Source: Syntrophomonadaceae bacterium
GTDB lineage: Bacteria > Bacillota > PH28-bin88
Assembly (NCBI GenBank): GCA_018333865.1
Contig: JAGXSE010000065.1
Coordinates: forward strand, 48,794 to 112,793
Length of the DNA: 64,000 bases
Direction: 5' to 3'
The translations under genes and the position numbers were made by a program. Numbering within the stretch: the first letter of the stretch is position 1; each line of letters opens with the position of its first letter. Below the pieces are notes generated by a model that saw only the letters and a program-made list of their open reading frames with translations, ran no database searches and was not told the DNA's origin. Shown here piece by piece: positions 50,293 to 64,000 of the stretch.

Positions 50293-51453
50293 CTAAAAAA
50301 TACTGGTCTCCTTAGGTTTATCGTTTCCACTACAGGAAAATCTGGCTGGGGACAGGCTCTTGATTTCCATGGAACGTACCTTTCTATCAACCAGCAGTTC
50401 AGCCAGTAGCAAGCCAATAGCTGGCGCATGCATGAAACCATGGCCGGTAAAGCCGTTAGCACAATAAAAACCTTCTGCCTCCTGCGCCTCCCCCAGGACA
50501 GGCTGGAAGTCGGGGGTAACTGACCTGAGCCCGGCATAGGCCTTGCTGATCTTTGCTTCGTTCAGGAGAGGTATTCGCTTAATTGCGGCTTGGGCGACCG
50601 TTTCCAAGCCGCTCCAATCGACAGAAATATCCATGCCCGGGGCTGTTGTTTTATCAGTACCCCCCATTAAAAGCTGCCCGTTTAGTTCTTGATGCAGGTA
50701 AAATCCGCTGTCCATATCAACTGTTAGGGGTATATTCCTGGGCAAGCTAGGGATGGGCTCGGCTACAAAAACCTGCCGCCGGTAGGGTGTTACCGGCAGG
50801 TTTACCCCTGCTAAACCGGCCACACTGGCGGCATAGGGGCCACCGGCATTGATGATCCTTGTTGTCGAGACAGTTTGTTTGCTGGTAATCACACGCCGGA
50901 CCTTCCCTTTTTCAACGCCAATGCCAATAACTGGTTCTTCAAAAAAATATTTGACACCAAGCCTTTTCCCGCTATTCAAATAGCCTTTAACCATTTCCGA
51001 TGGATCTGCAGATCCGTCAATAGAGCAAAAACTGCCCCCCTGAAGGTCAGTGGTGATCAGGTATGGAAACCGCCGGGCGATTTCATCCCTGTATAAAAGT
51101 TCAGAGGGTACGCCCAATTCTTGCTGTAGCAGAATATCCTTGGCAAACAATTCCATTTGCGCAGGGCAAGCAGTAACAAATAGGTAGCCGTTTTGCCGGT
51201 AGTTGATGTGATAGCCCATTTCTTCTGCAAAGGATTGAAAAAATGGGACACTCAGGAGAGAAAGCTGAATGTTTTCCCTGGCGGAAAATTGGTAGCGGAT
51301 GCCGCCGGTGCAGGCCGCCGTGGAACCGGTTCCTTCAAACTTTTCTTTTTCCAAAACAATGACCTTTAAGCCAGGGTCTTTTTTCTTCAAGTTATAGGCA
51401 ACGCTTAACCCAATGATTCCGGCTCCAATCACGACTACATCGGCCATATGCAC
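50293..51453 (-). CDS. FAD-dependent oxidoreductase (DAO family)
   Basis: N-terminal VVVIGAGIIGLSVAY dinucleotide fold, about 386 aa. Confidence 0.8.
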   Translation of the reverse strand: MHMADVVVIGAGIIGLSVAYNLKKKDPGLKVIVLEKEKFEGTGSTAACTGGIRYQFSARENIQLSLLSVPFFQSFAEEMGYHINYRQNGYLFVTACPAQMELFAKDILLQQELGVPSELLYRDEIARRFPYLITTDLQGGSFCSIDGSADPSEMVKGYLNSGKRLGVKYFFEEPVIGIGVEKGKVRRVITSKQTVSTTRIINAGGPYAASVAGLAGVNLPVTPYRRQVFVAEPIPSLPRNIPLTVDMDSGFYLHQELNGQLLMGGTDKTTAPGMDISVDWSGLETVAQAAIKRIPLLNEAKISKAYAGLRSVTPDFQPVLGEAQEAEGFYCANGFTGHGFMHAPAIGLLLAELLVDRKVRSMEIKSLSPARFSCSGNDKPKETSIF

Positions 51454-51650: not shown

Positions 51651-52694
51651 ATGCAGTTTGATAAACCAGTACTGGCCATAGACGTGGGCGGAGGGACCCA
51701 GGATATTTTTTTATTTCAACCCGGTCAATCCGTGGAAAACTCTGTGCAGATGGTCCTGCCTTCCCAGACCCAGGTAATTGCCCGTCAGATCAGGGAAATC
51801 ACCGACAGACGAGAAGACCTGTTCCTGACGGGGAGTTTAATGGGCGGGGGGGCTTCCAGTTCAGCCATCCGAAAACACCTTGCCGCCGGGTGCCGGGTTT
51901 ATGCTAACCCTGAGGCCGCCAAAACCCTGGACGATGACCTGCATAAGGTGCGGGCAACGGGAGTTATAATTACTGAAAGCCAACCCAGAAACACTGTCTC
52001 AGTTACAATGGGCGATATCAACCTGCCGGCCCTGGCAGCGGCTCTAAAGACTTTTGCCGTTGAACTGCCGGAACAGATTGTGGTTGCTGTGCAGGACCAT
52101 GGGGAAAGCCCGGGCTTCAGCAACAGGTTATTCCGCTTCCAGCACTGGCAGCGTTTTGTAGCTGAAGGTGGTGATATCAGACGGCTTTTATACAGTGAGG
52201 TTCCCTCATACCTGACCAGGATGCTGGCAGTTAAAGCTTTGCTACCCCAGGCTTATCTGGCCGATACGGGTACCGCTGCCATTTGGGGGGCATTGGAAGA
52301 CCCGCAGGTGGCCGTAAAACAGGCTGAAGGGGTAATCCTGCTCAATGTGGGAAATCAGCATACGGTGGGAGTGCTGCTGAAAAAATGGCAAGTCTATGGG
52401 CTGTTTGAACACCATACCGGCTTGCTGAATTCTGGAAAGTTGATTGACTATATCGAAAGGCTCCGCATGGGAGCATTAACCCATGCCGAAGTATACCAGG
52501 ATGGCGGTCATGGCTGTTATATCAGCCCAGACTATAATCCGGCGTCAGGGTTTAATCTGGTAGCCGTCACCGGGCCAAGACGAGCCATGACATGGGGAGC
52601 TGGGTATTATTTGGCTGTGCCCCACGGCAACATGATGCTGGCCGGCGCCTTCGGACTGGTAGCAGCATTGGCTGCCCGACAAATAGAGCAATAA
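51651..52694 (+). CDS. ASKHA-fold protein (possibly DUF1786-like)
   Basis: N-terminal LAIDVGGGTQDIF phosphate-1-like motif; no Fe-S Cys motifs; assignment from memory. Confidence 0.4.
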   Translation: MQFDKPVLAIDVGGGTQDIFLFQPGQSVENSVQMVLPSQTQVIARQIREITDRREDLFLTGSLMGGGASSSAIRKHLAAGCRVYANPEAAKTLDDDLHKVRATGVIITESQPRNTVSVTMGDINLPALAAALKTFAVELPEQIVVAVQDHGESPGFSNRLFRFQHWQRFVAEGGDIRRLLYSEVPSYLTRMLAVKALLPQAYLADTGTAAIWGALEDPQVAVKQAEGVILLNVGNQHTVGVLLKKWQVYGLFEHHTGLLNSGKLIDYIERLRMGALTHAEVYQDGGHGCYISPDYNPASGFNLVAVTGPRRAMTWGAGYYLAVPHGNMMLAGAFGLVAALAARQIEQ

Positions 52695-53415
52695 AGCATA
52701 CAAATCGCAATATTTTATACTTGTCTGGGAAAAACATAAATAATAAGCTTAAAATTAAGAAGGATACAAGGAGGTTTTCACTATGTCTGTATTGGAGGAT
52801 ATCAAACAAGCAGTGATTGACGGGAACGCTCCCAAGGTGAAAGCTATAACTGAAAGAGCTCTGGTCGAAGGAATCAGTATTAACGACATCATCAACGAAG
52901 GCTTAATCGGTGGGATGAGCTATATCGGCGTCAGGTTTAAAAACAACGAAGTCTATGTGCCCGAGGTCTTGATTGCCGCCAGGGCGATGCATGCGGGCAT
53001 GGGTGTGATGAAACCTTTGTTAACGGGTGAAAATTTTCAATCTAAAGGCACCTTTGTAATCGGCACCGTAAAAGGTGATCTCCACGACATCGGCAAGAAC
53101 CTGGTGATCATGATGATGGAAGGAGCTGGCTTTAAGGTTGTTGACCTGGGGATAGATGTGCCAACGGAAAAGTTCATTAAAGCCATTGAGGAGCATAAAC
53201 CCCAGATTGTCGGGCTTTCAGCCTTGTTGACTACAACCATGGTCCAGATGAAAAACACCATTCAAGAACTTAAGCCTTACCGCAATGAAATCAAAGTGAT
53301 GATCGGCGGAGCGCCGCTAACCCAAAAGTTTGCCGATGAAATCGGCGCCGATGCCTATGCTCCGGATGCGGCTACTGCTGTCGAACTGGCGACAGAACTT
53401 CTGGCTTCATAGCTG
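52695..53415 (+). repeat. direct repeat copy 1 (corrinoid-protein gene plus upstream element)
   Basis: About 95% nucleotide identity by eye to 56480-57193 across the coding region; upstream shares ACAAATCGCAATAT...ACTTGTCT. Confidence 0.8.
52783..53412 (+). CDS. cobalamin-binding corrinoid protein
   Basis: 209 aa; B12-binding motif GDLHDIGKNLV (DxHxxG) and Rossmann-like domain; AAGGAGG RBS. Confidence 0.85.
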   Translation: MSVLEDIKQAVIDGNAPKVKAITERALVEGISINDIINEGLIGGMSYIGVRFKNNEVYVPEVLIAARAMHAGMGVMKPLLTGENFQSKGTFVIGTVKGDLHDIGKNLVIMMMEGAGFKVVDLGIDVPTEKFIKAIEEHKPQIVGLSALLTTTMVQMKNTIQELKPYRNEIKVMIGGAPLTQKFADEIGADAYAPDAATAVELATELLAS

Positions 53416-53432
53416 AAAGGAGGCCGACCTCA

Positions 53433-54227
53433 GTGCTGGTTGTCGGCGAATTAATCAATTCTACCCGTAAAGCCATTGCCCAGGCCCTGGAGCAAAGAGA
53501 CCAGGCTTACCTGCAGGATTTGGCCCGGCGCCAGGTAGAGGCTGGCGCTTTGATCATCGATGTCAATGCGGCAATCGGTGGTAATGAAGCTGATCGCATG
53601 AAGTGGCTGGTAGAAATCGTGCAGGAAGCGGTGGGGGTGCCTCTTTGTATTGACAGTCCAAGTGCTGCTGCTATTGAGGCCGGTCTGGCCGTCTGCCGGG
53701 AAAAAGCCATGCTGAACTCCATTACGGCAGAAGACTACCGTTGGAACGAACTCTTGCCAGTTGTGCAAAAGTACAAGCCCCGCGTAATCGCCCTTTGTAT
53801 GGGTGACGGACCAATGCCTGAAACTACCCTTGACCGCCTGCGGGAAGCAGAAAAACTGGTGCCAGGCCTGGTGGCTGCGGGCATCCCGATTGAGGACATT
53901 TACCTTGATCCATTAATTAAACCCCTGGGGGTTAATACTAAACATGCTATGGAAGCCTTAGAAAGCACCCGTGCCTTACGCCTGGAATATCCCGGTGTAC
54001 ATATTATCTGTGGTTTATCCAATGTTTCTTTTGGCCTGCCAGAGCGTCGCCTGTTAAACAGAGCCTTTATGGTGATGGCAATTTCCTCTGGCATGGATGC
54101 CCTTATTATGGATCCCCTGGATCACCCTACCATGTCCTTCTTAGCGGCTGCCAGGGCTTTAGTTGGGCAGGACGAATACTGCCTGGAATACATTGCCGGT
54201 GTCAGGTCAGGAAGGGTTAAGGCTTAG
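53433..54227 (+). CDS. pterin-binding methyltransferase (methylcorrinoid:tetrahydrofolate type, MtrH/AcsE-like)
   Basis: 264 aa DHPS-like barrel; GELINS start, IDVNAA and HIICGLSNVSFGLP segments. Confidence 0.7.
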   Translation: MLVVGELINSTRKAIAQALEQRDQAYLQDLARRQVEAGALIIDVNAAIGGNEADRMKWLVEIVQEAVGVPLCIDSPSAAAIEAGLAVCREKAMLNSITAEDYRWNELLPVVQKYKPRVIALCMGDGPMPETTLDRLREAEKLVPGLVAAGIPIEDIYLDPLIKPLGVNTKHAMEALESTRALRLEYPGVHIICGLSNVSFGLPERRLLNRAFMVMAISSGMDALIMDPLDHPTMSFLAAARALVGQDEYCLEYIAGVRSGRVKA

Positions 54228-54259
54228 AGAAAGGTAATAAAAAATGGGGGTGGCTAAAA

Positions 54260-55405
54260 ATGGGAGCACTAACCCCGCGGGAACGGGTCCGGCGGGCACT
54301 AAGTTTCCAGGAGCCTGACCGGGTTCCCACCGATGTGGGAACCAGTGCAGCGACAGGGATCACCCTGGGGGCTTATGAGCAATTAAAGCAGTATCTAAAG
54401 ATGCCTGATGCTACTGGGAGCGTAAATCACTTGATGTTTCAGACGGTAACGGCAGATCACCGGGTGCTGGAAAGGCTGGGAGTGGATTTCCGTCCGGTAT
54501 ACTATCGCCCGCCTGCCGAAAACAAGGGTATTTGGGGGCCTGATGACACTTTTGTCACAGAATGGGGGTTTACTGTCAAACGGCCTGAAGGCGGCCTGTA
54601 TTATGACATTATTAAAAGCCCATTGCTAGAGGCAGAAATAGAAGACCTGGACAGGTATCCCTGGCCGGATCCCCATGACCCAGGCCGGATCGCCGGAGTG
54701 GCTAAAGAGGCCAAGGAACTCTACGAGCAGACAGATTATGCAATATTTGGCCCGGGCATGGAAGGCGGATTTTTCGAGCTTTCCTGGTATTTAAGAGGAA
54801 TAGAGCGCTTTTTTATGGACCTAATCGAAAACAAAGAGTTTGTCCACGCCCTGTTCCGGAAGCTTTTGGATTATCGCAAGGCTTTATTGGGACGTTATCT
54901 TGATGCAGCAGGAAAATACCTGGATGTAGTGTATTACGGGGACGACATCGCCATGCAGACCGGCCCTTTGATGTCTTTAGGGCTCTACCGGGAGCTGGTC
55001 AAGCCCTATCAAAAAGAGCTGTTCAGTTTTATTAAAGAAAAGACCGAGGCCAAGCTCTTCTACCACACCTGTGGCAGCGTGGTAAAGTACTTGGACGATC
55101 TGATCGAGATCGGGGTTGATATCATTAACCCCGTTCAGGTCAGCGCCAAGGATATGGATACTGCCAGGTTAAAGCAAAGCTATGGCCATCGGCTGGTATT
55201 CTGGGGCGGGATCGATACCCAGCATGTCTTGCCTTTTGGTACAGAAGAAGAAGTAGAGGAAGAGGTAAAAAGGCGGATTAAAGACCTGGCTCCGGGCGGC
55301 GGCTATGTCTTGGGGCCTGTGCATAACGTCCAGCCTGACGTGCCTCCCCAGAACCTGGTGCGAGTTTTCCAGGCCGCCAGCCAGTACGGTGTTTATCATA
55401 GATAG
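54260..55405 (+). CDS. URO-D/MtaA-family methyltransferase (substrate:corrinoid type), copy 1
   Basis: 381 aa with PDRVP near N-terminus and HTCGS, GGGYVLGPVHNV segments. Confidence 0.8.
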   Translation: MGALTPRERVRRALSFQEPDRVPTDVGTSAATGITLGAYEQLKQYLKMPDATGSVNHLMFQTVTADHRVLERLGVDFRPVYYRPPAENKGIWGPDDTFVTEWGFTVKRPEGGLYYDIIKSPLLEAEIEDLDRYPWPDPHDPGRIAGVAKEAKELYEQTDYAIFGPGMEGGFFELSWYLRGIERFFMDLIENKEFVHALFRKLLDYRKALLGRYLDAAGKYLDVVYYGDDIAMQTGPLMSLGLYRELVKPYQKELFSFIKEKTEAKLFYHTCGSVVKYLDDLIEIGVDIINPVQVSAKDMDTARLKQSYGHRLVFWGGIDTQHVLPFGTEEEVEEEVKRRIKDLAPGGGYVLGPVHNVQPDVPPQNLVRVFQAASQYGVYHR

Positions 55406-55659
55406 CTACCCGCTCTAATCCCCCCACTAGTTGGGACATTCCTTTAAAGCGGCGGGATAAGAGCGGTTACGCTACACAAAGTTGGGGACATTCCTGTCCC
55501 AAAAAAATGGCCTGAGCTTCAGCAGGTGTGTCCCCGTTCCTTTTATCTGGCTCTAAGCTTCAGTGGGGGTAGTAATCCCCCCTCTGAAGCCAAGACCCAG
55601 TTGAACCAATCAGATTATAGCCCCTTCGATAGCTTAAAATAACCCAAGTATAAAACAGG

Positions 55660-55695
55660 CTGGAAGTGCCTTCGCCTAGGCGAAGGCACTTCCAG
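55660..55695 (+). repeat. 36-nt perfect inverted repeat (hairpin)
   Basis: CTGGAAGTGCCTTCGCC-TA-GGCGAAGGCACTTCCAG; no T-run on the plus side, T-rich on the minus side. Confidence 0.7.
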
Positions 55696-55723
55696 CAATT
55701 CTCATGGCCTCTAGCAACGCAGA

Positions 55724-55751
55724 TTGCATTTTTCGCCATTTCCTTTATAAT
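55724..55751 (+). promoter_or_regulatory. sigma-A-type promoter for the small two-gene cassette
   Basis: TTGCAT at 55724-55729, 16-nt spacer, TATAAT at 55746-55751. Confidence 0.45.
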
Positions 55752-55809
55752 CTAAGATAGCAGTGGTATGATGTCAAGCAACTAAATAGTATACCAAGGG
55801 GGTGTTTTT

Positions 55810-56067
55810 ATGGTTCCGTCACCCAAAGTTAAGAAACATCTCAGTGAGATCAAAAGAGAGCAGTGGACAGAGGCGGAATTGAGAGAGCTGCTCAAAGCCA
55901 TTGCCCGGGATTTCCAATTGCAAATCGAGATATCCGGCGAATCTGCAGATGATGATTTTTGGGCACTCACCCCGGATGAGGATCAGCATTTCAATGACCT
56001 GCTGGTCAAATCAGCGAGAGACACCAAAAATAAGTGTTTTACCGAATACAGTAGGCCGCAGCTCTAA
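55810..56067 (+). CDS. small acidic protein (antitoxin-like)
   Basis: 85 aa; acidic C-terminal half; ATG with AAGGGGG RBS; 2 nt from the next ORF. Confidence 0.3.
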   Translation: MVPSPKVKKHLSEIKREQWTEAELRELLKAIARDFQLQIEISGESADDDFWALTPDEDQHFNDLLVKSARDTKNKCFTEYSRPQL

Positions 56068-56069
56068 TC

Positions 56070-56396
56070 ATGCGCAGAAAGATCAGATTTCGCAGAACTC
56101 ATACCTATAATGAGGAATTGTTAAACATCCGGGAATTCAACCGGGAATTGGCCGAACAGATTGAAGAAAAGCGAGAGTATTTTGAGCGTTGCCTGACCAA
56201 TCCCCCTTACCTTCCGTCACCAGGCCTCAACATGGAGACACTGGAGGGTAAAATTACCCGGCCCGATTGGCTGAGAGGGTACCCTAAACTATACAGCTTC
56301 AGGGTGAATAAATATGCCCGAGTAATTTTCTGGTGGGCTGAAGACGGAACATGCGAGTATTTATTTCCTTTTGCCAAGCATTACAGAAGAAGTTGA
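56070..56396 (+). CDS. small basic protein with RelE/YoeB-like C-terminal pattern (toxin-like)
   Basis: 108 aa; C-terminus YSFRVNKYARVIFWWAEDGTCEYLFPFAKHYRR fits the RelE/ParE/YoeB core pattern. Confidence 0.3.
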   Translation: MRRKIRFRRTHTYNEELLNIREFNRELAEQIEEKREYFERCLTNPPYLPSPGLNMETLEGKITRPDWLRGYPKLYSFRVNKYARVIFWWAEDGTCEYLFPFAKHYRRS

Positions 56397-56423
56397 AGCT
56401 TCCTGCGAGGGAGGCTTTTTTTT
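56397..56423 (+). terminator. rho-independent terminator
   Basis: Stem AGCTTCC/GGAGGCT (one G-U) followed by TTTTTTTT. Confidence 0.6.
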
Positions 56424-56479
56424 CAGTTCTTCAAAATGCTGGCTAACATTAAACACCAAAAAAGCAAAATAACAAACAA

Positions 56480-57193
56480 ATCGCAATATATTGAACTTGT
56501 CTTATGGAAGGCAAAGGCAGTAGTATTAGATTAAGGAAAGGACTACAAAGGAGGTATTTGATACCAGTGTTGGAAGATATCAAGCAAGCAGTGATTGACG
56601 GGAACGCTCCCAAGATGAAAGCTATTACTGAAAGAGCACTGGCCGAAGGAATCAGTATTAATGACATCATCAACGAAGGCTTAATCGGCGGGATGAGCTA
56701 TATCGGTGTCAAGTTTAAAAACAACGAAGTATATGTGCCCGAGGTCTTGATTGCCGCCAGGGCAATGCATGCAGGCATGGGTGTGATTAAGCCCTTGTTA
56801 ACTGGTGAAAATTTTCAATCTAAAGGCACCTTCGTAATCGGCACCGTAAAAGGTGATCTCCACGACATCGGCAAGAACCTGGTGATCATGATGATGGAAG
56901 GCGCCGGCTTTAAGGTAGTTGACCTGGGGATAGATGTACCAACGGAAAAGTTTATTCAAGCGATCGAGGAGCACAAACCCCAAATTGTCGGGCTTTCAGC
57001 CTTGTTGACCACAACCATGGTCCAGATGAAAAACACCATTCAAGAACTGAAGCCTTACCGCAATGAAATCAAGGTGATGATCGGCGGAGCGCCGGTTACC
57101 CAAAAGTTTGCCGATGAAATCGGAGCCGATGCCTATGCCCCCGATGCGGCCACAGCTGTAGAACTGGCGACAGATCTACTGGCTTCATAGCTA
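56480..57193 (+). repeat. direct repeat copy 2 (corrinoid-protein gene plus upstream element)
   Basis: Near-identical to 52695-53415; see copy 1. Confidence 0.8.
56567..57190 (+). CDS. cobalamin-binding corrinoid protein, copy 2
   Basis: GTG 56567 aligns with copy 1 N-terminus (VLEDIKQAVIDG); same GDLHDIGKNLV motif; AAGGAGG RBS. Confidence 0.85.
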   Translation: MLEDIKQAVIDGNAPKMKAITERALAEGISINDIINEGLIGGMSYIGVKFKNNEVYVPEVLIAARAMHAGMGVIKPLLTGENFQSKGTFVIGTVKGDLHDIGKNLVIMMMEGAGFKVVDLGIDVPTEKFIQAIEEHKPQIVGLSALLTTTMVQMKNTIQELKPYRNEIKVMIGGAPVTQKFADEIGADAYAPDAATAVELATDLLAS

Positions 57194-57337
57194 TTGTTGA
57201 CATTAATCTGACTGCGCCATCCATCGTTAAGCACCAAAATTTCTTGTGTTGCCAATGTCTGATTATAAAGGATTTCTTAAAAGAGAAATTTGTGCGCCAG
57301 GATCTAACTTGTGATCGTGATAGTGTTTAAGTTGAAA

Positions 57338-57360
57338 GAAGTATTTGCACAGAATACTTC
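57338..57360 (+). promoter_or_regulatory. 8-bp-stem hairpin between corrinoid gene 2 and the methyltransferase
   Basis: GAAGTATT-tgcacag-AATACTTC; not followed by a T-run. Confidence 0.3.
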
Positions 57361-57415
57361 TATGCAATAAAAAGTTTGAATATTATGAGATTTTAAGAAC
57401 GGAGGCTTGCTAGGC

Positions 57416-58513
57416 ATGACCGAAATGAAACCTAGGCAACGTGTCTTAACAGCATTAAACTTAGGAGTTCCAGATAGGGTTCCATTTATGGAAAGTGCTA
57501 TAGATGAGATTTTACAGGTTCAATTAATGGGCAGAGATAATTTTACCCCAGATGAGCTATGTGAAAAATTGGGATTGGATGCTTTTGGTTATGACTATCC
57601 TGCTACCGGTGGAGAGCTAGGAACAGGGGAAGTTGCAAGGGGTATAACCACCCATGATGTATATTACTTTCCTAAAAGAATAACTTTTGATTTCCTGCCT
57701 CCGTGGATCGCTGATAAAGGAGAGGGGGTGGCGGGGCGTAGTTTTATAAAAAAAGGATTGCTAACCGATAATGATTCCATTGCACTATTTGATAAATTTC
57801 TTCCCGATCCCCATCACCTAGCCCGATACGACATTGTTTCTGATTGGATATCAAAATACAAAAAAGACTATGCGGTTTTTGCCCGCATTCGGCTGGGTGC
57901 AGCTCCCACGATTAATAGCATGGGCTTTGAGGAGTTGTGTTACAAAATTTTCGACAACCCCAATTTAGTTAAGGAAGTACACAGGAGGTTTTCTGAATGG
58001 ACGGCTCAGGTTATTCAGCACCTAAATAAAATGGACTTTGATTTTATTTGGGCGGCTGACGATATAGCCGATAATAAAGGTCCTTGGTTTTCACCAGCGA
58101 TTTTTCAAGAATTCTTTTTACCGTATATGAAGATTGCAGCCGATGAAATTAAGAAACCATGGGTCTTTCACAGTGACGGTAATTTGTTCCCTATTATGGA
58201 TGATTTGTTATCCTTGGGGATGCAAGGCATCCACCCATTGCAGCCTGCTGCAATGGACATTGTAAAAATGAAGGAAGATTACGGCCACAGGGTATGCCTT
58301 GTTGGTAATATCGATCTTGATTATACATTGACCCGGGGAACACCTGAAGAAGTGGAAGAGGAGGTTAAACAGCGGATTGAAACGATTGGCCAGAAAGGAG
58401 GTTATATTGTTAGCAGTGCTAATAGTCTAGCTTCATATGTAAAACCGGAGAATGCCTTAGCTTTGGGGCAAGCAGTCAAAAAGTACGGAAAGTATCCCTT
58501 AATTATTGATTGA
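57416..58513 (+). CDS. URO-D/MtaA-family methyltransferase, copy 2 (divergent paralog)
   Basis: PDRVP N-terminal motif, HSDGN and GGYIVSSANS segments; distant from copy 1. Confidence 0.8.
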   Translation: MTEMKPRQRVLTALNLGVPDRVPFMESAIDEILQVQLMGRDNFTPDELCEKLGLDAFGYDYPATGGELGTGEVARGITTHDVYYFPKRITFDFLPPWIADKGEGVAGRSFIKKGLLTDNDSIALFDKFLPDPHHLARYDIVSDWISKYKKDYAVFARIRLGAAPTINSMGFEELCYKIFDNPNLVKEVHRRFSEWTAQVIQHLNKMDFDFIWAADDIADNKGPWFSPAIFQEFFLPYMKIAADEIKKPWVFHSDGNLFPIMDDLLSLGMQGIHPLQPAAMDIVKMKEDYGHRVCLVGNIDLDYTLTRGTPEEVEEEVKQRIETIGQKGGYIVSSANSLASYVKPENALALGQAVKKYGKYPLIID

Positions 58514-58614
58514 TTAAAACGAGGGGGGGGAGATTTTATATAAGTGTTCGGTGTAGTAACTTTTGTGTTGTGGAATAACAGCTAAAACATGATATTTGAA
58601 AGGGGGAGGGTTAG

Positions 58615-59712
58615 ATGAGTAAACCTGAAAAAAGAAAATATATGTTAGCTTTATTGTTAATGGTTTTGTTAACAGTAGTGTTTTTTAGTGCAGGCTGTGC
58701 ACCCAGAGATCAGAAAGCTGCGGAAGGACCACCAGCACCAGCTCAAAAAGAGAAACATACCTGGGAAATGCAGTCTTGGACTTGGCCTGGCTTGGAACCT
58801 AAGCATAGTATAGTCCATGATTTTGCCAAAAGAGTGTACGAGGCATCTGGTGGTCGCCTTGAAATCATCATGCATCCACGGGAAGCGGTTGTGCCGGGTT
58901 GGGAGGCTACTGAAGCAGTAGGAAGGGGCATATTAGACATGTCCTTTGAGTGGCCAGGAGTTATGGCAGGGAGATGGGGGGATGTAGGCTTTAATCTTTT
59001 TTCGCCTCCTCCCATGTCCCTCCGAGAAGGTTGGCAGGTAACTTCCTGGTTTTACGACTGGGGTGTGCTAGATATAATGCGGGAAGCATTCGCTAAACAC
59101 AATGTTTATGTTGCTGGTATAACCTTTTGGCAACAAGAGAGCTTACATTCCAAAAAGCCAATTCGAGGAATCGCAGATCTACGAGGAGTAAAAGTCAGAA
59201 CCCCTCCAGGCATAACTTCGGACTTTTTTAGAGCGTTGGGAGCCTCTCCAGTTGTTTTGCCTCCGCCTGAAATTTATTCATCATTGGATAGAGGGGTAAT
59301 TGACGCTGCTGAGTGGGTAACTCCAGTCGGAAACTTTGCCTCAGGTTTCCAAGAAGTGACTGAATACGTGCTTTGGCCATCACCACATCAAGAATTTGCT
59401 ACTGTATATGTAGCAGTAAACATGGATTCCTGGAATGCATTATCTCCTGAACTCAAAGCTATATTTAAGGGAGCTTTAGCGGAGTTTTCCTGGAGGCATG
59501 CATACGAACCTTATTTAGCGGATTATCAAACAATTAAGAAATATATTGCAGCAGGAAATGAACATATTCAGTGGTCTGATGCAGAATTAAAAAAGGCACG
59601 AATAATTGCCAGAGATTTATGGCGTTCTTATGGTAAACAAAGCCCACTTGCAGCAAAATTGGTAGAAAAGCTTGAGTCATATCTGAAAACGATCGGAGAA
59701 ATGCCTGAATAG
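58615..59712 (+). CDS. TRAP transporter substrate-binding lipoprotein
   Basis: Signal peptide with lipobox FSAGC; about 340-aa mature domain; directly upstream of DctQ/DctM-type permease genes. Confidence 0.65.
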   Translation: MSKPEKRKYMLALLLMVLLTVVFFSAGCAPRDQKAAEGPPAPAQKEKHTWEMQSWTWPGLEPKHSIVHDFAKRVYEASGGRLEIIMHPREAVVPGWEATEAVGRGILDMSFEWPGVMAGRWGDVGFNLFSPPPMSLREGWQVTSWFYDWGVLDIMREAFAKHNVYVAGITFWQQESLHSKKPIRGIADLRGVKVRTPPGITSDFFRALGASPVVLPPPEIYSSLDRGVIDAAEWVTPVGNFASGFQEVTEYVLWPSPHQEFATVYVAVNMDSWNALSPELKAIFKGALAEFSWRHAYEPYLADYQTIKKYIAAGNEHIQWSDAELKKARIIARDLWRSYGKQSPLAAKLVEKLESYLKTIGEMPE

Positions 59713-59747
59713 CAACTTGTTTTTAGCTCAAATCAAGTAGAACTATT

Positions 59748-59788
59748 GGAGGAGGGAAGGGATGCCTTGTCATTTTTATCCCTCCTCC
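59748..59788 (+). other. intercistronic stem-loop
   Basis: 10-bp perfect stem GGAGGAGGGA/TCCCTCCTCC with a 21-nt loop. Confidence 0.5.
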
Positions 59789-59885
59789 AAACTCTAAGTT
59801 TAGCGGTTGAAAGGAAGTCCTGCTAAAAATATTTTCAAAGCACCCGATGGGCATCTTTGAGTAAAACAGAGGAGGGATGAATAAC

Positions 59886-60383
59886 ATGGGGTATTTTTTT
59901 CGCCTCGTAGATATGACAAACGAATTGGTCGGCAAATTGATGAGCATCATCGTTGTTGCAACAGTGTTGATTATTACTTTTGGAGTGATCATGCGGTATA
60001 TTTTTAAGTCACCTATTCCGGTAGTTTTTGAGTTAACCATATATCCTCTTGCAGCAGTATATGCACTTTCGACTGGTTACGCACTTCTCCACAACGCCCA
60101 TGTAAATGTCGACGCAATAATCCACAGATTATCGCCTAGACACAGACTTATACTGGCCTTTGCGACCTTTCCGGTTTTTTTGGTTTTTTGTGCTGCGCTG
60201 ATTTGGAGCGGATTCCCGTGGGCATGGCATTCGTTTTTAATAAATGAAACAAGCGGGTCGTCGTGGAGCCTAAAATTATACCCATATAAGTTTGCACTGC
60301 CAATTGGAGCAGTATTGTTGCTCCTTCAAGGTACGGTTAACTTGATCCGTCAGATGGATCTAACTAAGAAAGCTTCAAAATAA
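59886..60383 (+). CDS. TRAP transporter small permease (DctQ-like)
   Basis: About 165 aa, four TM helices; ATG 59886 chosen for GGAGGG spacing. Confidence 0.65.
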   Translation: MGYFFRLVDMTNELVGKLMSIIVVATVLIITFGVIMRYIFKSPIPVVFELTIYPLAAVYALSTGYALLHNAHVNVDAIIHRLSPRHRLILAFATFPVFLVFCAALIWSGFPWAWHSFLINETSGSSWSLKLYPYKFALPIGAVLLLLQGTVNLIRQMDLTKKASK

Positions 60384-60457
60384 TGGCAGTGTCGAGTATG
60401 GTGTATGTTTGGGATCCGGGTAAGGTTGCAGTGTTAGAAAGGTAGGCATCGGATGAA

Positions 60458-61777
60458 ATGAATATTGAATTGATTACATTAGTTGTTATTATATCTTTCC
60501 TAGGTCTATTAATGGCGGGAGTGCCCATGGCCTTTACTATGGGTGGGAGTGCGATAGTTTTAACCCTTATTTTGTGGGGGCCAGACTTTATTCCCCTGAT
60601 TCTTATGCGCATTTTTGAACAGATGGCAAGTTATACTTTTGTGGCAGCACCAATGTTTATTTTTATGGCTTCGGTCTTAGAGCGAATTGGTGTCGCAGAG
60701 GAATTGTTTGAAGGGATATACTCCTGGATCGGCTCTATCCGCGGAGGTTTAGCGATAACTGTTGTGATCGCATGTACTATTCTAGCTGCTATGGTGGGCA
60801 TTATTGGGGCGGGTATTGTATTAATGGGGTTAATTGCCCTACCTCAGATGCTGAAACGTGGGTACGATAAAAACCTAGCAACGGGAACCATCATGGCCTC
60901 AGGTTGTCTAGGAATTCTAATTCCCCCCAGTATATTATTCGTCGTCTATTCTATGGTTGCTGGCGTATCTGTAGGGAAGCTGTTTGCAGGAGCTATAATC
61001 CCTGGGCTCATGCTTTCTTTCGCGTACGTATTATATATTACTATCAGATGTTATTTAAATCCAAAAATAGGTCCTGCTGCCAATGAGAAAAACTTGGAAC
61101 CTATTTCTATAAAAAAGAAGTTAATGCTTTTGAAAAATCTTATTGCCCCCATGCTTTTAATAGTAACTGTTATGGGCAGCATTTTTTTTGGGATTGCAAC
61201 CCCTACAGAAGCAGCCGGCGTAGGAAGTTTTTGCGCGCTTTTAATCGCGGTTGCCCGGGGTAAGCTTAGTTTTCTTATGCTGAAAGAAACTGCGATGCAA
61301 ACAGTCAAGGTATCAGCGATGATCATGTGGATAATTTTTGGTGCAACAGCCCTAATTTCTGTGTATACCCGCGCCGGTGGAGCTAGATTTATGGAAGAGG
61401 TTATCCATGCATTGCCTCTAGGACCATGGGAACTTTTTATTGCGGTACAAATGCTATTTTTTATTATGGGATTTTTTCTCGATTGGATTGGCATTCTTAT
61501 GTTAACAGGCCCACTTTTAATACCGATAATGGCTGAGATAGGATTTGATCCTCTATGGTTTGGTATCGTGTTTGCGCTTAATATGCAAATGGCTTTTTTA
61601 ACACCGCCATTTGGCCCAGCGATGTTTTATATGAAAGGTGTAGTGCCTGCCGAGATTAAAATTACAGATTTGTATCGGGCTGTCATTCCTTTTATTTGTC
61701 TGCAGTTGCTAGTTCTGATTATCGTCATTTTATATCCATCACTTGCCCTATGGCTGCCAGCGAAGTTATTCCCTTAA
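60458..61777 (+). CDS. TRAP transporter large permease (DctM family)
   Basis: 439 aa, about 12 TM helices, typical DctM pattern. Confidence 0.9.
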   Translation: MNIELITLVVIISFLGLLMAGVPMAFTMGGSAIVLTLILWGPDFIPLILMRIFEQMASYTFVAAPMFIFMASVLERIGVAEELFEGIYSWIGSIRGGLAITVVIACTILAAMVGIIGAGIVLMGLIALPQMLKRGYDKNLATGTIMASGCLGILIPPSILFVVYSMVAGVSVGKLFAGAIIPGLMLSFAYVLYITIRCYLNPKIGPAANEKNLEPISIKKKLMLLKNLIAPMLLIVTVMGSIFFGIATPTEAAGVGSFCALLIAVARGKLSFLMLKETAMQTVKVSAMIMWIIFGATALISVYTRAGGARFMEEVIHALPLGPWELFIAVQMLFFIMGFFLDWIGILMLTGPLLIPIMAEIGFDPLWFGIVFALNMQMAFLTPPFGPAMFYMKGVVPAEIKITDLYRAVIPFICLQLLVLIIVILYPSLALWLPAKLFP

Positions 61778-61942
61778 TTCTAGTTATGGCCCGAAGTGGA
61801 ACCAAGATCGTGGTATGTGAACATAAATTTTTTTACAGCAGAATCATATATTTTAATTAACAAGGCTAGCAAATATTATTGTTAGAATTTATGCTGATAC
61901 TTAGTAAAATATAGTTAACAGGAGCCAGGAGGGGTTATCGCG

Positions 61943-62899
61943 GTGAAATTGCATGTGGTGATTGCAGATTTTCGTTGGGAAGATTTATCCTGCGAACAAA
62001 ACATCTTTTCCCCTAACGGTATCGAGATAGCTGGTTTCCAATGTGACACAGAAGAAGAAGTGCTATCTGCCTGTAAGGAGGCGGACGGAATTATTACTAC
62101 TGCTAGCCCAATTTCGGCGCGAGTCATCCAGGGAATGAAAAAATGCAAGGTTATTTCCAGATACGGGATCGGTTATGATAATGTGGATATTAAGGCTGCT
62201 TCGGCCCAAGGTATTATTGTGTGCAATGTCCCAGATTATTGCATTGACGAAGTAGCCGATCATGCCTTCACTTTAATAATGGCCTTGGTAAGAAAACTAA
62301 ACCCATATGCTCAAAGTGTTAGGGATGGTTTATGGGATTACCCCTTGTATAAACCAATCTTTAGGTTGAAAGGCAAGGTCTTAGGCCTTGTTGGTTTTGG
62401 AAATATTGCTCGTAACCTTGCGCGAAAAGCTCAGTGTTTCGGCCTGGAAATTATTGCTTTTGATCCCCATGTCTCCGGTGCGGAAATGGAACAATTAGGA
62501 GTTTCCCCTGTGAGTTTAGATCAACTATGTCGTGTTTCTGATATTATTTCTGTACATGTACCATTGGCAGATTCAACCAGGGGCATCATTGGTCAGCAAC
62601 AGCTCGAAAAAATGAAGCCCACTGCGATCTTGATCAATACCGCCCGCGGGCCGGTGGTGAATGAAGATGCCTTAATAAGTGCTTTGGAAGCAAAAACAAT
62701 TGCAGGTGCAGGTTTGGATGTAGTCACGAAAGAACCTATTGATATTAATAATCCCTTGCTAATGATGCCGAATGTTATTGTGACCCCTCATATGAGTTGG
62801 TATTCCAAAGAGGCAGAAGAAGAACTACGAATAAAAGCCGCAAATAATGTTCTTTCCGTTTTGAAAGGTGAAAACCCTAAGTACAGGGTCAACAGCTGA
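61943..62899 (+). CDS. D-isomer-specific 2-hydroxyacid dehydrogenase (NAD-binding)
   Basis: GLVGFGNIARNLARKA NAD-binding motif and catalytic Arg/Glu/His arrangement; GTG start with GGAGGGG RBS. Confidence 0.9.
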   Translation: MKLHVVIADFRWEDLSCEQNIFSPNGIEIAGFQCDTEEEVLSACKEADGIITTASPISARVIQGMKKCKVISRYGIGYDNVDIKAASAQGIIVCNVPDYCIDEVADHAFTLIMALVRKLNPYAQSVRDGLWDYPLYKPIFRLKGKVLGLVGFGNIARNLARKAQCFGLEIIAFDPHVSGAEMEQLGVSPVSLDQLCRVSDIISVHVPLADSTRGIIGQQQLEKMKPTAILINTARGPVVNEDALISALEAKTIAGAGLDVVTKEPIDINNPLLMMPNVIVTPHMSWYSKEAEEELRIKAANNVLSVLKGENPKYRVNS

Positions 62900-63088
62900 A
62901 TAAAACACAAATGTTTTGTGCCTGAGCGCCATGAAAGGATAGCTGATTACTATCGTGTCAAGCAGTAGGAACGCCTTGGAATTCTTTCCTCCAACAATGG
63001 ATTTGAGAATATAGGCAATAATTGCATTGGCTACACTTCCTACCTTCCACCGGCCACTGAGAGCGGTATCGGCGCCAAAATCGCTGAC

Positions 63089-63541
63089 ATGTGGGGGGAA
63101 AACAGTGATCAGATCCTGACCAGTGTTTCACCGGAAATGACTGAGGAGTTTGCCTTTGTATATGAGAAGAAATGGGCAGATATGTTCGGACTTCACTCCT
63201 ATGGCTGTTGTGAGCGGCTGGATCACAAGCTGGGGATCCTGACAAAAAGTTTTCCCAACCTGCGAAAGGTATCGTGCTCTCCTTTCAGTAATCTGGAGTT
63301 TACCATGGAGCAATTAGGTGACAGGTATATTATCAGCTTTAAGCCAAATTCTAACTATCTTGCGGGCAGCACTCCTGATATGGAGTATCTAAAGCGGGAA
63401 ATTATTTGCGCATTAAACCTGGCTCGAAAGTATAAGGCCAACCTTGTATTAAATATGAAGACAATGATTTCTCTCAACGGTGATCCCACCCGGCTGTGGA
63501 AATGGTGTGACATGGCTAGTGACATATTAACAAATTATTGA
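63089..63541 (+). CDS. hypothetical protein, possible gene remnant
   Basis: 150 aa from the only canonical start; frame stays open upstream to an in-frame TAG at 62966-62968; no convincing RBS. Confidence 0.3.
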   Translation: MWGENSDQILTSVSPEMTEEFAFVYEKKWADMFGLHSYGCCERLDHKLGILTKSFPNLRKVSCSPFSNLEFTMEQLGDRYIISFKPNSNYLAGSTPDMEYLKREIICALNLARKYKANLVLNMKTMISLNGDPTRLWKWCDMASDILTNY

Positions 63542-63624
63542 TTCCAATGAATTTATAGACCCTTTAATTCTGCAATCGCAATAGCAATAGGAAAAACTAA
63601 TTGACAAAGAGAGGTGCTTGGTTA

Positions 63625-64000
63625 GTGAGACCAGATAAGCCTGATTTTGAAAGAATAAAAACAGCTCTATATTGCAAAGAGCCTGACAGGGTACCATTGG
63701 CCGAGTTAATTATAGATCCTAAAGTAAGAGCTGGATTTATGGGCAAACCGGTTGACGACATCAAGACGAATGTGGAATTTTGGGCCGCAGCTGGATATGA
63801 TTATATTATACTATCGAAAGGATTGCTTGAACCTGGGCATGTGTTGGAAGGTACAGCAGTCCAAAAAACAAGAAGTGAAACAAGCCTTTATGGAAATGGA
63901 GTTGAAGAGAGAGATTGGGCTAATTTGCATGAAGGTGTCATAAAAACCGAAGCAGATTTTGAAAAATTTAATTGGCCTGATCCTGATTCATTGGATTACT
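63625..64000 (+). CDS. URO-D/MtaA-family methyltransferase, copy 3 (5' partial, runs off window)
   Basis: GTG 63625 with AGAGAGGTG RBS; N-terminus VRPDKPDFERIKTALYCKEPDRVP parallels the other URO-D paralogs. Confidence 0.6.
   Translation, partial: MRPDKPDFERIKTALYCKEPDRVPLAELIIDPKVRAGFMGKPVDDIKTNVEFWAAAGYDYIILSKGLLEPGHVLEGTAVQKTRSETSLYGNGVEERDWANLHEGVIKTEADFEKFNWPDPDSLDY

Follow-up and report, generated by a model that had tools for sequence, protein, structure and literature searches.

A candidate TRAP-fed corrinoid demethylation block in a Syntrophomonadaceae genome

Related corrinoid methyltransferase systems and the block under study

Corrinoid-dependent methyl transfer is the route by which methylated compounds enter anaerobic one-carbon (C1) metabolism and has lately been shown in abundant aerobic marine bacteria too. 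The known substrate-side enzymes act on methanol, methylamines, quaternary amines, methyl sulfides, aromatic methyl ethers and halomethanes. The closest described relatives of the locus studied here include three-component systems, comprising MtvABC of Moorella, OdmABCD/Vdm of Acetobacterium, archaeal Mto and CdmBCA for chloromethane, in which a substrate-side methyltransferase (MT I) of the UroD superfamily is combined with a corrinoid protein of ~210 aa carrying a DxHxxG loop and a pterin-binding methyltransferase (MT II) (superfamily: PMC13222342). We analyzed a block with the same parts list in a 64,000-nt stretch of DNA, hereafter the window, from a metagenome-assembled genome (MAG) labeled Syntrophomonadaceae bacterium at NCBI (assembly GCA_018333865.1, contig JAGXSE010000065.1, forward-strand positions 48,794 to 112,793). 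The block joins UroD-family genes (URO-D#1 to URO-D#3) and corrinoid protein genes to a tripartite ATP-independent periplasmic (TRAP) transporter. With moderate confidence, we interpret it as a TRAP-fed, corrinoid-dependent demethylation system, in which a small alpha-substituted carboxylate is imported and a methyl group passes to a corrinoid protein and on to tetrahydrofolate.

All components listed in the initial annotation of this stretch, namely two corrinoid proteins, a pterin-binding methyltransferase, three URO-D proteins, a DctPQM transporter and a D-2-hydroxyacid dehydrogenase, are present and were confirmed with hidden Markov models (HMMs). In this HMM search of open reading frames (ORFs), the named genes of the block, or island, proved intact, on the + strand and each above its threshold; from 51.6 kb to the window end, all family-matching ORFs of at least 100 aa lie on this strand. 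Corrinoid proteins A (209 aa, 52783-53412, +) and B (207 aa, 56567-57190, +; GTG start after AAAGGAGG) both consist of B12-binding_2 (PF02607) and B12-binding (PF02310) domains (E = 1e-20 to 1e-31). As their annotation implied, the DxHxxG loop is present in both, reading GDLHDIGKN, and SALL and GG motifs can also be read. The candidate MT II is the pterin-binding methyltransferase (264 aa, 53433-54227, +), with matches to Pterin_bind (PF00809, E = 1e-27) and NF005719 (332 bits versus a cutoff of 259). Adjoining the corrinoid genes are the three genes of URO-D fold, URO-D#1 (381 aa, 54260-55405, +; PF01208, E = 4e-29), URO-D#2 (365 aa, 57416-58513, +; E = 2e-25) and URO-D#3 (E = 3e-27), for which this position beside a corrinoid protein suggests an MT I role. 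URO-D#3 runs off the window after the first 125 codons of a 355-aa protein (63625-64000, +); the same sequence was found on a 320-kb metagenome contig (stretch L001, full gene at 11683-12750), from which we read past the window end.

No close relationship to the three-component systems was detected, with CdmB, the only solved member, compared by sequence and MtvB, OdmB and MtoB by description. The island differs from these systems by an invariant His/Asp/Asn set in URO-D#2 and URO-D#3 that CdmB lacks, by its TRAP importer, by a kinase with a B12 domain and by having no activase gene within it. Moreover, the three-component systems are those of anaerobes, whereas the URO-D#2 clade extends into aerobic Proteobacteria. 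As to the MtaA/MtbA/MtsA group, URO-D#2 and URO-D#3 find their best match in the Protein Data Bank (PDB), by fold as well as by sequence, in MtaA (4ay7), but its zinc cysteines are replaced by Asp and Asn in these two proteins and the second cysteine by His in URO-D#1. Enzymes of the MtaA type use coenzyme M, whereas the expected acceptor of the island is tetrahydrofolate. A precedent for corrinoid demethylation of a methylated carboxylate is MtpA, the methylmercaptopropionate:cob(I)alamin methyltransferase of Methanosarcina (bioRxiv 10.1101/548461), which we likened to the island by description, not by sequence.

The chassis of MT I, corrinoid protein, MT II, DUF1638 and activase is already known. 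MtgBCDE and the split methionine synthase of Phaeobacter inhibens and Ruegeria pomeroyi (PMC5764234, PMC12478193) share a corrinoid protein, a bidirectional pterin methyltransferase, DUF1638 and RACo/RamA, into which an MT I plugs, and proteobacterial members of the URO-D#2 clade occur in exactly such clusters, one of them with a homocysteine methyltransferase. The substrate methyltransferase of MtgBCDE has the MttB fold (PF06253), whereas that of the island has the URO-D fold and is accompanied by a TRAP importer; tblastn detected neither an MttB nor a homocysteine methyltransferase (PF02574) gene in the window or its extension. The mec cassette (bioRxiv 10.1101/2021.08.30.458270; PMC9768040), compared by architecture alone, follows the same logic, including a PocR kinase and a 272-aa response regulator. 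It differs in that the island kinase has an extra N-terminal corrinoid-binding domain (622 aa versus 430 aa for MecA), the transporter is of the TRAP type instead of a cation antiporter and DUF1638 is present; in addition, mec genes are narrow in distribution, whereas URO-D#2 is broad. Since mec holds three URO-D-superfamily proteins in a single dichloromethane cassette, several URO-D paralogs need not mean several substrates.

The URO-D#2 clade and its gene neighborhoods

All three URO-D proteins score well above the PF01208 gathering cutoff (90-102 bits versus 23.9), and URO-D#3 is 33% identical to URO-D#2. The initial view that they are not genuine uroporphyrinogen decarboxylases was borne out by score, as the sole match to TIGR01464 hemE was URO-D#2 with 15 bits (E = 0.009; cutoff of 303 bits), and HemE identity was rejected on these NCBIfam values (at most 15 versus 303 bits). 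Equivalence to MtaA/CmuA was rejected as well, both on scores against TIGR01463 (74.6 bits for URO-D#1, 54.5 bits for URO-D#2 and no match for the URO-D#3 fragment versus a cutoff of 235) and on the replaced zinc ligands. In the alignment with 4ay7, the positions compared are H-I-C and P-G-C of MtaA, which we take to be its three zinc ligands. At these positions, URO-D#1 carries His-Thr-Cys and His, a putative metal site (H-T-C...H), while URO-D#2 and URO-D#3 carry His-Ser-Asp and Asn (H-S-D...N). The URO-D#2 alignment shows no variation at H252, D254 and N336, nor does that of URO-D#1 at H269, C271 and H355. Because real URO-D genes with the full H-x-C...C pattern are present near the orthologs of Desulfitibacter alkalitolerans and Thermanaeromonas toyohensis, the H-S-D...N difference is no alignment artifact. 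The missing Cys2 site argues against a thiol-methylating (MT2) role of URO-D#2 and URO-D#3 and would fit a substrate-side methyltransferase better, although it gives no indication of the donor atom.

An AlphaFold2 model of URO-D#2 (predicted local distance difference test score of 89.7) returned MtaA 4ay7 as the best Foldseek match (E = 2.5e-17, template modeling score of 0.70-0.76), followed by UroD structures. By sequence, matches in the PDB are weak (MtaA, 36 bits; CdmB, 35 bits; UroD, 23 bits), and the CdmB match, with E values of 1e-7 for URO-D#2 and 6e-4 for URO-D#3, covers the C-terminal part alone, with the H...D residues missing in CdmB at the aligned positions. Given the weakness of these matches, the three URO-D proteins lie in uncharacterized parts of the UroD superfamily, which holds many clades without assigned substrate (PMC13222342).

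URO-D#2 has 779 homologs at E values up to 1e-10, of which the best 120 are 55-73% identical, and mean column identity within the clade is 70%. These homologs, annotated only as ‘uroporphyrinogen decarboxylase family’, occur in Bacillota (Desulfitibacter, Thermanaeromonas, Moorella/Neomoorella, Desulfosporosinus and Desulfotomaculum), Thermodesulfobacteriota, Chloroflexi and Actinomycetes, as well as in many MAGs of Burkholderiales, Hyphomicrobiales and Rhodospirillales. Cultured carriers are D. alkalitolerans, Neomoorella stamsii, Desulfosporosinus paludis and T. toyohensis. For a census of gene neighborhoods, we searched 80 genome loci anchored on the clade by tblastn, including 44 with at least 18 kb of sequence (‘long’ loci). 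A corrinoid protein was present in 66, a pterin methyltransferase in 55 and DUF1638 in 48 of the 80. Within the 44 long loci, RACo occurred in 30, methylenetetrahydrofolate reductase (MTHFR) in 27 and the TRAP subunit DctM in 24, while homocysteine S-methyltransferase (PF02574) was found in three and an MttB-family gene in one. For comparison, 80 metagenome loci with URO-D#1 relatives at 40-56% identity were sampled (L096-L175), 36 of them long, and TRAP linkage was seen in only two of these 36 (24/44 versus 2/36; Fisher p = 2e-6).

The nearest named relative, D. alkalitolerans, has an orthologous URO-D-DctP-DctQ-DctM block at 73, 65, 68 and 74% identity, respectively. This conserved block and the linkage statistics support the earlier suggestion that the transporter feeds the corrinoid demethylation system. 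Divergently upstream of the D. alkalitolerans block are a B12-domain kinase, a response regulator and another H-S-D-type URO-D gene; a stand-alone corrinoid protein or pterin methyltransferase was not detected within 10 kb. Further neighbors include two MtaA-like URO-D genes (H-x-C...C) and genes for 2-oxopent-4-enoate hydratase-like, DHDPS-family and aldehyde:ferredoxin oxidoreductase proteins, which hint at a 2-oxoacid catabolic route downstream of the transporter. In other lineages, the arrangement varies. Desulfosporosinus shows the order pterin methyltransferase-DUF1638-URO-D-corrinoid protein, and a single-strand cluster of a Hyphomicrobiaceae member comprises GntR-DctPQM-corrinoid protein-URO-D-pterin methyltransferase-RACo-MTHFR-DUF1638, which reads as one putative uptake-plus-C1 pathway. 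Neighbors in proteobacterial loci include GntR regulators, FAD_oxidored (14 clusters) and phytanoyl-CoA-dioxygenase-like genes, the last judged from sequence. Naming a substrate from such neighbors was abandoned for lack of convergence, as the D. alkalitolerans set differs from that of the Proteobacteria.

Two further arrangements were noted in passing. In a betaproteobacterial MAG, a set resembling that of the Hyphomicrobiaceae but without TRAP genes ends in a homocysteine S-methyltransferase gene (L095, 16060-17097) and lies 3' of genes for TonB-dependent B12 uptake and salvage, so that the URO-D#2-clade gene is embedded in an apparent split methionine synthase operon. Separately, 24 loci, many from Burkholderiales (for example, L038, 10478-12409), encode a ~640-aa fusion of URO-D, B12-binding_2 and B12-binding domains, the architecture of the chloromethane enzyme CmuA, with domains judged from sequence and tblastn.

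Transporter ligand, proposed pathway and competing explanations

The TRAP genes are adjacent and, in agreement with their initial assignment, all three products exceed the Pfam thresholds: the solute-binding protein DctP (365 aa, 58615-59712, +; PF03480, E = 1e-35; NF037995, 75.5 versus a cutoff of 50), the small membrane subunit DctQ (59877-60383, +; PF04290, E = 1e-25) and the large membrane subunit DctM (60458-61777, +; PF06808, E = 4e-80; TIGR00786 dctM, 338 versus 268 bits). Membrane segments are predicted in DctQ and DctM. DctP has one N-terminal hydrophobic segment followed by SAGC, fitting a predicted lipoprotein as expected of a monoderm. Its best PDB matches are 2zzv (TTHA0766 with Ca-lactate, E = 8e-51), an apo Rhodobacter protein, Bordetella BB0280 and TakP (Na-2-oxoacid, E = 4e-23), and by homology we assign it to the lactate/2-oxoacid (TTHA0766/TakP) subfamily. 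Despite sharing no more than 29% identity with the window DctP, the binding protein encoded in the Hyphomicrobiaceae cluster has the same best PDB matches.

The partners of the ligand carboxylate in TakP are Arg177 and Tyr100, and a cation bridges the carboxylate and the 2-oxo group via Gln156, Glu214, Trp215 and Glu240 (PMC1839085); TTHA0766 uses Ca2+ in a TakP-like manner. We aligned the window DctP with its D. alkalitolerans ortholog and 13 further URO-D#2-linked binding proteins. Except for a divergent second copy in one locus (L016), all keep the Arg, the acidic residue plus Trp (Glu214/Trp215) and a Glu at the position of Gln156/N158. In the window DctP, the Arg in GVKVRTPPG aligns with R178 of TTHA0766 and R177 of TakP, the E-W pair is kept, a Glu stands at TTHA0766 N158 and H-Q-E lies near the position of TakP Glu240. 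DctP shares with TTHA0766 and TakP the carboxylate Arg, the acidic and aromatic cation-site pair and the third cation-ligand position. It differs from them in overall sequence (~30-35% identity), in a Tyr-to-Val replacement taken up below, in being a predicted lipoprotein and in being partnered with a corrinoid methyltransferase set instead of amino-acid or lactate metabolism.

By comparison with these sites, the ligand of DctP would be a small monocarboxylate held as a cation chelate, with an O or N function adjacent to the carboxylate. A site of the TTHA0766/TakP type therefore makes large methoxylated aromatic acids less likely ligands, and the initial suggestion of a methoxylated aromatic acid as methyl donor has lost ground, DctP falling in this subfamily and not with any known aromatic-acid binder. 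Candidate ligand classes are 2-methoxy acids, N-methyl amino acids and those 2-oxo or 2-hydroxy acids that bear a methylthio or methoxy group at a distal position. The caution that the substrate itself cannot be read from sequence still holds.

In the pathway that we infer, DctP would capture a small monocarboxylate, probably as a cation chelate in the way that TTHA0766 and TakP bind lactate and pyruvate, and DctQM would import it. URO-D#2, probably together with URO-D#3, would serve as MT I and move the methyl group onto Co(I) of corrinoid protein B or A, from which the pterin-binding methyltransferase would hand it to tetrahydrofolate and so to C1 metabolism. The corrinoid would be kept active by DUF1638 together with a RACo/RamA-type activase from another part of the genome, and a soluble B12-domain/PocR kinase with an AraC-type response regulator would switch the genes on. 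In this lineage only, the D-2-hydroxyacid dehydrogenase may process the demethylated acid.

As a more tentative extension, it is possible that URO-D#2 represents a large new family of UroD-fold MT I enzymes, marked by His/Asp/Asn and spread over anaerobic Firmicutes, sulfate-reducer lineages, Chloroflexi and aerobic or facultative Alpha- and Betaproteobacteria. Such a family would demethylate a TRAP-imported, cation-chelating alpha-substituted carboxylate into the folate pool via the shared chassis of corrinoid protein, pterin methyltransferase, RamA and DUF1638, and the kinase would act as a B12-based chemosensor that responds to methylation or a redox change of its own corrinoid domain. Candidate donors would include methoxyacetate or 2-methoxy acids, sarcosine-type N-methyl amino acids and 2-oxo- or 2-hydroxy-4-methylthiobutyrate. 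If true, such a family, acting on a small methylated carboxylic acid delivered by a high-affinity TRAP importer, would extend the known substrates by a new class and provide a function for hundreds of genes annotated as ‘uroporphyrinogen decarboxylase family’. The finding is unsurprising in principle, but it defines a concrete, widely distributed family, and its cultured carriers and soluble, screenable binding protein make the question directly testable. In the literature searched, we found no description of a UroD-fold MT I clade with a His/Asp/Asn site that ranges from strict anaerobes to aerobic Proteobacteria, of a recurrent pairing of such a clade with a lactate/2-oxoacid-subfamily TRAP importer or of a corrinoid-domain histidine kinase beside a URO-D#2-type clade. 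The same literature, incomplete in coverage and thus weak evidence of novelty, contained no TRAP-coupled corrinoid demethylase.

Several observations weigh against a TRAP-fed demethylation system. The URO-D#2 clade has no characterized member, and TRAP genes are absent from 20 of its 44 long loci, with some relatives carrying a major facilitator superfamily transporter instead. MTHFR and RACo in proteobacterial clusters also fit an anabolic, split-methionine-synthase setting, and the three long loci with homocysteine S-methyltransferase point the same way. In the binding site, the Tyr that hydrogen-bonds the carboxylate (TakP Tyr100/TTHA0766 Tyr101) is Val in the window and D. alkalitolerans proteins, while proteobacterial proteins keep Tyr. 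The closest solved relative of DctP binds plain lactate and a 2-hydroxyacid dehydrogenase gene lies beside the transporter, so that an ordinary lactate/2-oxoacid uptake module is conceivable. Finally, no RACo/RamA activase, MTHFR or Wood-Ljungdahl gene was detected in the window or the next 9 kb (RACo by tblastn); the activase may be encoded elsewhere in the genome.

An ordinary uptake module is the strongest competitor, although we consider it rather unlikely. TRAP transporter and dehydrogenase would form a lactate/2-oxoacid uptake and oxidation unit inside the island, the imported acid would be only a carbon or electron co-substrate and the methyl donors, such as methanol, methyl sulfides, methoxylated aromatics or halomethanes, would be permeant or imported elsewhere. 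The ranking of TTHA0766 as best solved relative of DctP, with pyruvate/2-oxoacid binders next, agrees with such a module, as do the position of the D-2-hydroxyacid dehydrogenase gene (318 aa, 61943-62899, +; 2-Hacid_dh_C, E = 2e-60) 3' of DctM and the mosaic nature of the island, with its GC break, duplicated gene and pseudogene. It is opposed by the adjacency of URO-D#2 and TRAP genes in at least four phyla, often on the same strand as corrinoid genes and without a 2-hydroxyacid dehydrogenase (0/80 loci), by the retention of the URO-D-DctPQM block in D. alkalitolerans and by the far rarer TRAP linkage around URO-D#1 relatives. The dehydrogenase gene, listed with the system in the initial annotation, is present, but its absence from all 80 related loci led us to reject it as a conserved partner. 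It scores under all NCBIfam equivalog cutoffs and appears to be an accessory gene of this lineage.

Methyl flow could also run in the reverse, anabolic direction, from methyl-tetrahydrofolate via the corrinoid protein to a URO-D-bound acceptor, either a thiol as in MtaA or homocysteine, with the URO-D proteins acting in an MT2-like manner. This arrangement would agree with the fold of URO-D#2, closest to the methylcobalamin:coenzyme M methyltransferase MtaA, with the H-x-C...H site of URO-D#1, which could hold zinc, and with the split methionine synthase set of proteobacterial clusters (corrinoid protein, pterin methyltransferase, RACo, DUF1638 and MTHFR, sometimes with homocysteine S-methyltransferase; PMC5764234, PMC12478193). 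We nevertheless regard it as unlikely. Asp and Asn replace the two zinc-binding cysteines of MtaA in URO-D#2 and URO-D#3, PF02574 is confined to three of 44 long loci and the island itself lacks homocysteine methyltransferase and MttB genes. In addition, the importer and the GntR or two-component regulators in the same clusters suggest catabolism of an external compound.

A third explanation, in which the URO-D genes are HemE paralogs or encode TIM-barrel enzymes that act on sugars or acids without methyl transfer and lie near corrinoid genes by chance, has most plausibility for URO-D#1. This family is very large (>6,000 matches), and its sampled relatives mostly lie among sugar genes, with a corrinoid protein in only six and a pterin methyltransferase in none of the 80 loci. 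Recurrent neighbors, judged from sequence, are sugar ATP-binding cassette (ABC) transporters, FGGY and PfkB kinases, short-chain and zinc alcohol dehydrogenases, Gfo/Idh/MocA oxidoreductases and fucose-isomerase-like genes. Furthermore, URO-D#1 is missing from a sister genome, introduced below, that does have the corrinoid protein and the pterin methyltransferase. On the other side, HemE models are unmatched and the linkage of URO-D#2 to corrinoid genes is overwhelming. URO-D#1 itself is co-directional with the pterin methyltransferase gene, begins 33 bp behind it and is followed by a terminator-like hairpin. Three loci of closer relatives at 50-58% identity (L089-L091) do contain MttB-family genes, together with an EamA transporter, and corrinoid and pterin-binding genes in one of the three; their catabolic genes vary, with KDG-kinase/KDPG-aldolase-type genes in one Chloroflexi-like locus and serine dehydratases in Desulfosarcina widdelii. 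For the URO-D genes as a whole, we judge chance proximity very unlikely. It is conceivable that URO-D#1 is a further MT I, for example for an O-methylated sugar, sugar acid or uronic acid, a role less well supported than that of URO-D#2. The initial idea of three divergent URO-D proteins for related substrates is doubtful: URO-D#1 has H-x-C...H and relatives mainly in sugar loci without corrinoid genes, and the H-S-D...N site is common to URO-D#2 and URO-D#3 only.

Least credible, to the point of being nearly negligible, is a halomethane or dichloromethane cassette of the mec/Cdm/Cmu type with a volatile C1 halide sensed via PocR and a transporter unrelated to the donor, since the mec-like architecture (a kinase with a PocR domain paired with a response regulator, three URO-D-superfamily proteins and a single corrinoid protein, MT II and transporter each) and the presence of CdmB among the few PDB sequence matches are set against a CdmB match that is weak, C-terminal only and devoid of the H...D residues, a mec transporter that is a cation antiporter instead of a TRAP system with a carboxylate-type binding protein, and reports that Mec proteins have no homologs above ~35% outside dichloromethane and chloroform degraders, whereas URO-D#2 has hundreds at 55-73% across phyla.

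Regulation, island boundaries and neighboring genes

Past the window end follow, in order, the rest of URO-D#3, a 622-aa histidine kinase, an overlapping 272-aa response regulator with an AraC DNA-binding domain, an overlapping DUF1638 gene and pyrR-pyrB-pyrC-pyrF, so that the island extends ~4 kb beyond the window end. The kinase contains B12-binding_2, B12-binding, PocR, His_kinase and HATPase_c domains. Over the first 210 residues, which retain an intact DxHxxG and precede PocR, it shares 47-48% identity with the island corrinoid proteins. As the protein has no hydrophobic or membrane segment, sensing would be cytoplasmic, and we speculate that the kinase senses the substrate via methylation of its own corrinoid. 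This makes it a second lead as a possible B12-based chemosensor. DUF1638 is genetically tied to corrinoid methyltransferase function: Phaeobacter DUF1638 mutants are methionine auxotrophs, like mutants in the split corrinoid methionine synthase, and the distribution of DUF1638 tracks that of a RamA-like activase (PMC5764234). In Ruegeria, DUF1638 is induced together with a corrinoid glycine betaine system (PMC12478193). No Rfam RNA, including the cobalamin riboswitch, was found in 47-64 kb at E values up to 0.1, and a promoter scan gave no more sites than shuffled sequence.

The island boundaries became apparent from a sister MAG (GCA_049323775.1, 81-87% nucleotide identity), which shares amylase, ArAE exporter, DAO, DUF1786, corrinoid protein and pterin methyltransferase genes and then continues directly with pyrR. 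Colinearity ends at window position 54223 and restarts at the equivalent of 68086, and, therefore, a block of ~13.9 kb (54224 to ~68085), from URO-D#1 through DUF1638, is specific to this genome relative to the sister MAG. The block may have been gained by insertion here or lost by deletion in the sister genome. The extent first proposed, 51651-64000, proved wrong on both sides: the DUF1786 gene is part of the backbone, and the island continues past the window end. Since corrinoid protein A, colinear in the sister genome together with the pterin methyltransferase, is shared, it is part of an older corrinoid-protein/pterin-methyltransferase pair at this site; its nearest NCBIfam models are MtgC-type corrinoid proteins, below cutoff.

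The block is a mosaic bearing assembly scars in the form of a duplicated corrinoid gene, a hairpin, small ORFs and a pseudogene. GC content is 37-44% from URO-D#2 through URO-D#3 versus 48-53% in the flanks. Corrinoid genes A and B are 96% identical in amino acids and 92% in nucleotides over 666 bp (52754-53414 versus 56530-57192), including ~30 bp of upstream sequence, while the genes around the two copies are 10 GC points apart. The pattern points to gene conversion or a recent duplication, through which the block could be rearranged. Between them, the 405-bp gap 3' of URO-D#1 contains a palindromic hairpin with a perfect 17-bp stem including 11 GC pairs (55659-55696), probably a terminator parting two transcription units. 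Two small, passenger-like ORFs of 85 and 108 aa (55810-56396, +) without Pfam or NCBIfam match follow, with a second terminator-like hairpin at their 3' end (56395-56418). The 108-aa ORF weakly resembles RelE-like toxins (PHROGs, E = 0.005 and 0.014), and hairpin and ORFs are possibly a toxin-antitoxin or mobile-DNA remnant at an island-internal junction.

Upstream of the island, two backbone genes were considered and discarded as components. DUF1786 (51651-52694) was rejected as an island gene or novel activase, as in three genomes (Moorella naiadis, Clostridiales PH28_bin88 and the sister MAG) it neighbors a pyr operon and a divergent DAO gene, whether methyltransferase genes are present or not. 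It lies directly 5' of pyrR in M. naiadis and between the divergent DAO gene and the pyr operon in PH28_bin88, and it is found in none of 160 related loci (80 of the URO-D#2 clade and 80 of the URO-D#1 family); in the literature searched, we found no mention of it. The DAO-family FAD oxidoreductase (50293-51453, −), which resembles glycine oxidase and sarcosine oxidase beta below cutoffs, was rejected as a sarcosine/glycine oxidase-like partner, being a backbone gene unrelated to the FAD_oxidored proteins of the 14 proteobacterial clusters. In several Firmicutes, DUF1786 and the divergent DAO-family gene occur as a conserved pair immediately 5' of pyrR-pyrB-pyrC. DUF1786 proteins are ~55% identical across Moorella, Calderihabitans and Chloroflexi, and one homolog is fused to a ThiS domain. 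The sister MAG additionally has two ABC-transporter genes between amylase and ArAE exporter that are absent here and carA-carB between pyrC and pyrF, which are missing from the pyr operon of this genome.

Between the dehydrogenase gene and URO-D#3 lies a truncated pseudogene without Pfam match (62900-63541, +), the remnant of a fourth, remotely URO-D-like family. A 150-codon ORF within it (63089-63541) was rejected as a new small gene, as it corresponds to the C-terminal third of a ~420-aa family, 5'-truncated and interrupted by a stop codon: it aligns to residues ~275-426 of proteins of 410-440 aa, and the homology runs upstream across the stop. The parent family matches the URO-D#2 profile in hhalign (93% probability, E = 3e-7) and may be another unrecognized branch of the UroD/MtaA superfamily. 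It has 807 matches in a representative library, no Pfam model and an invariant G-C-C motif, and one member is fused to an NPCBM carbohydrate-binding domain.

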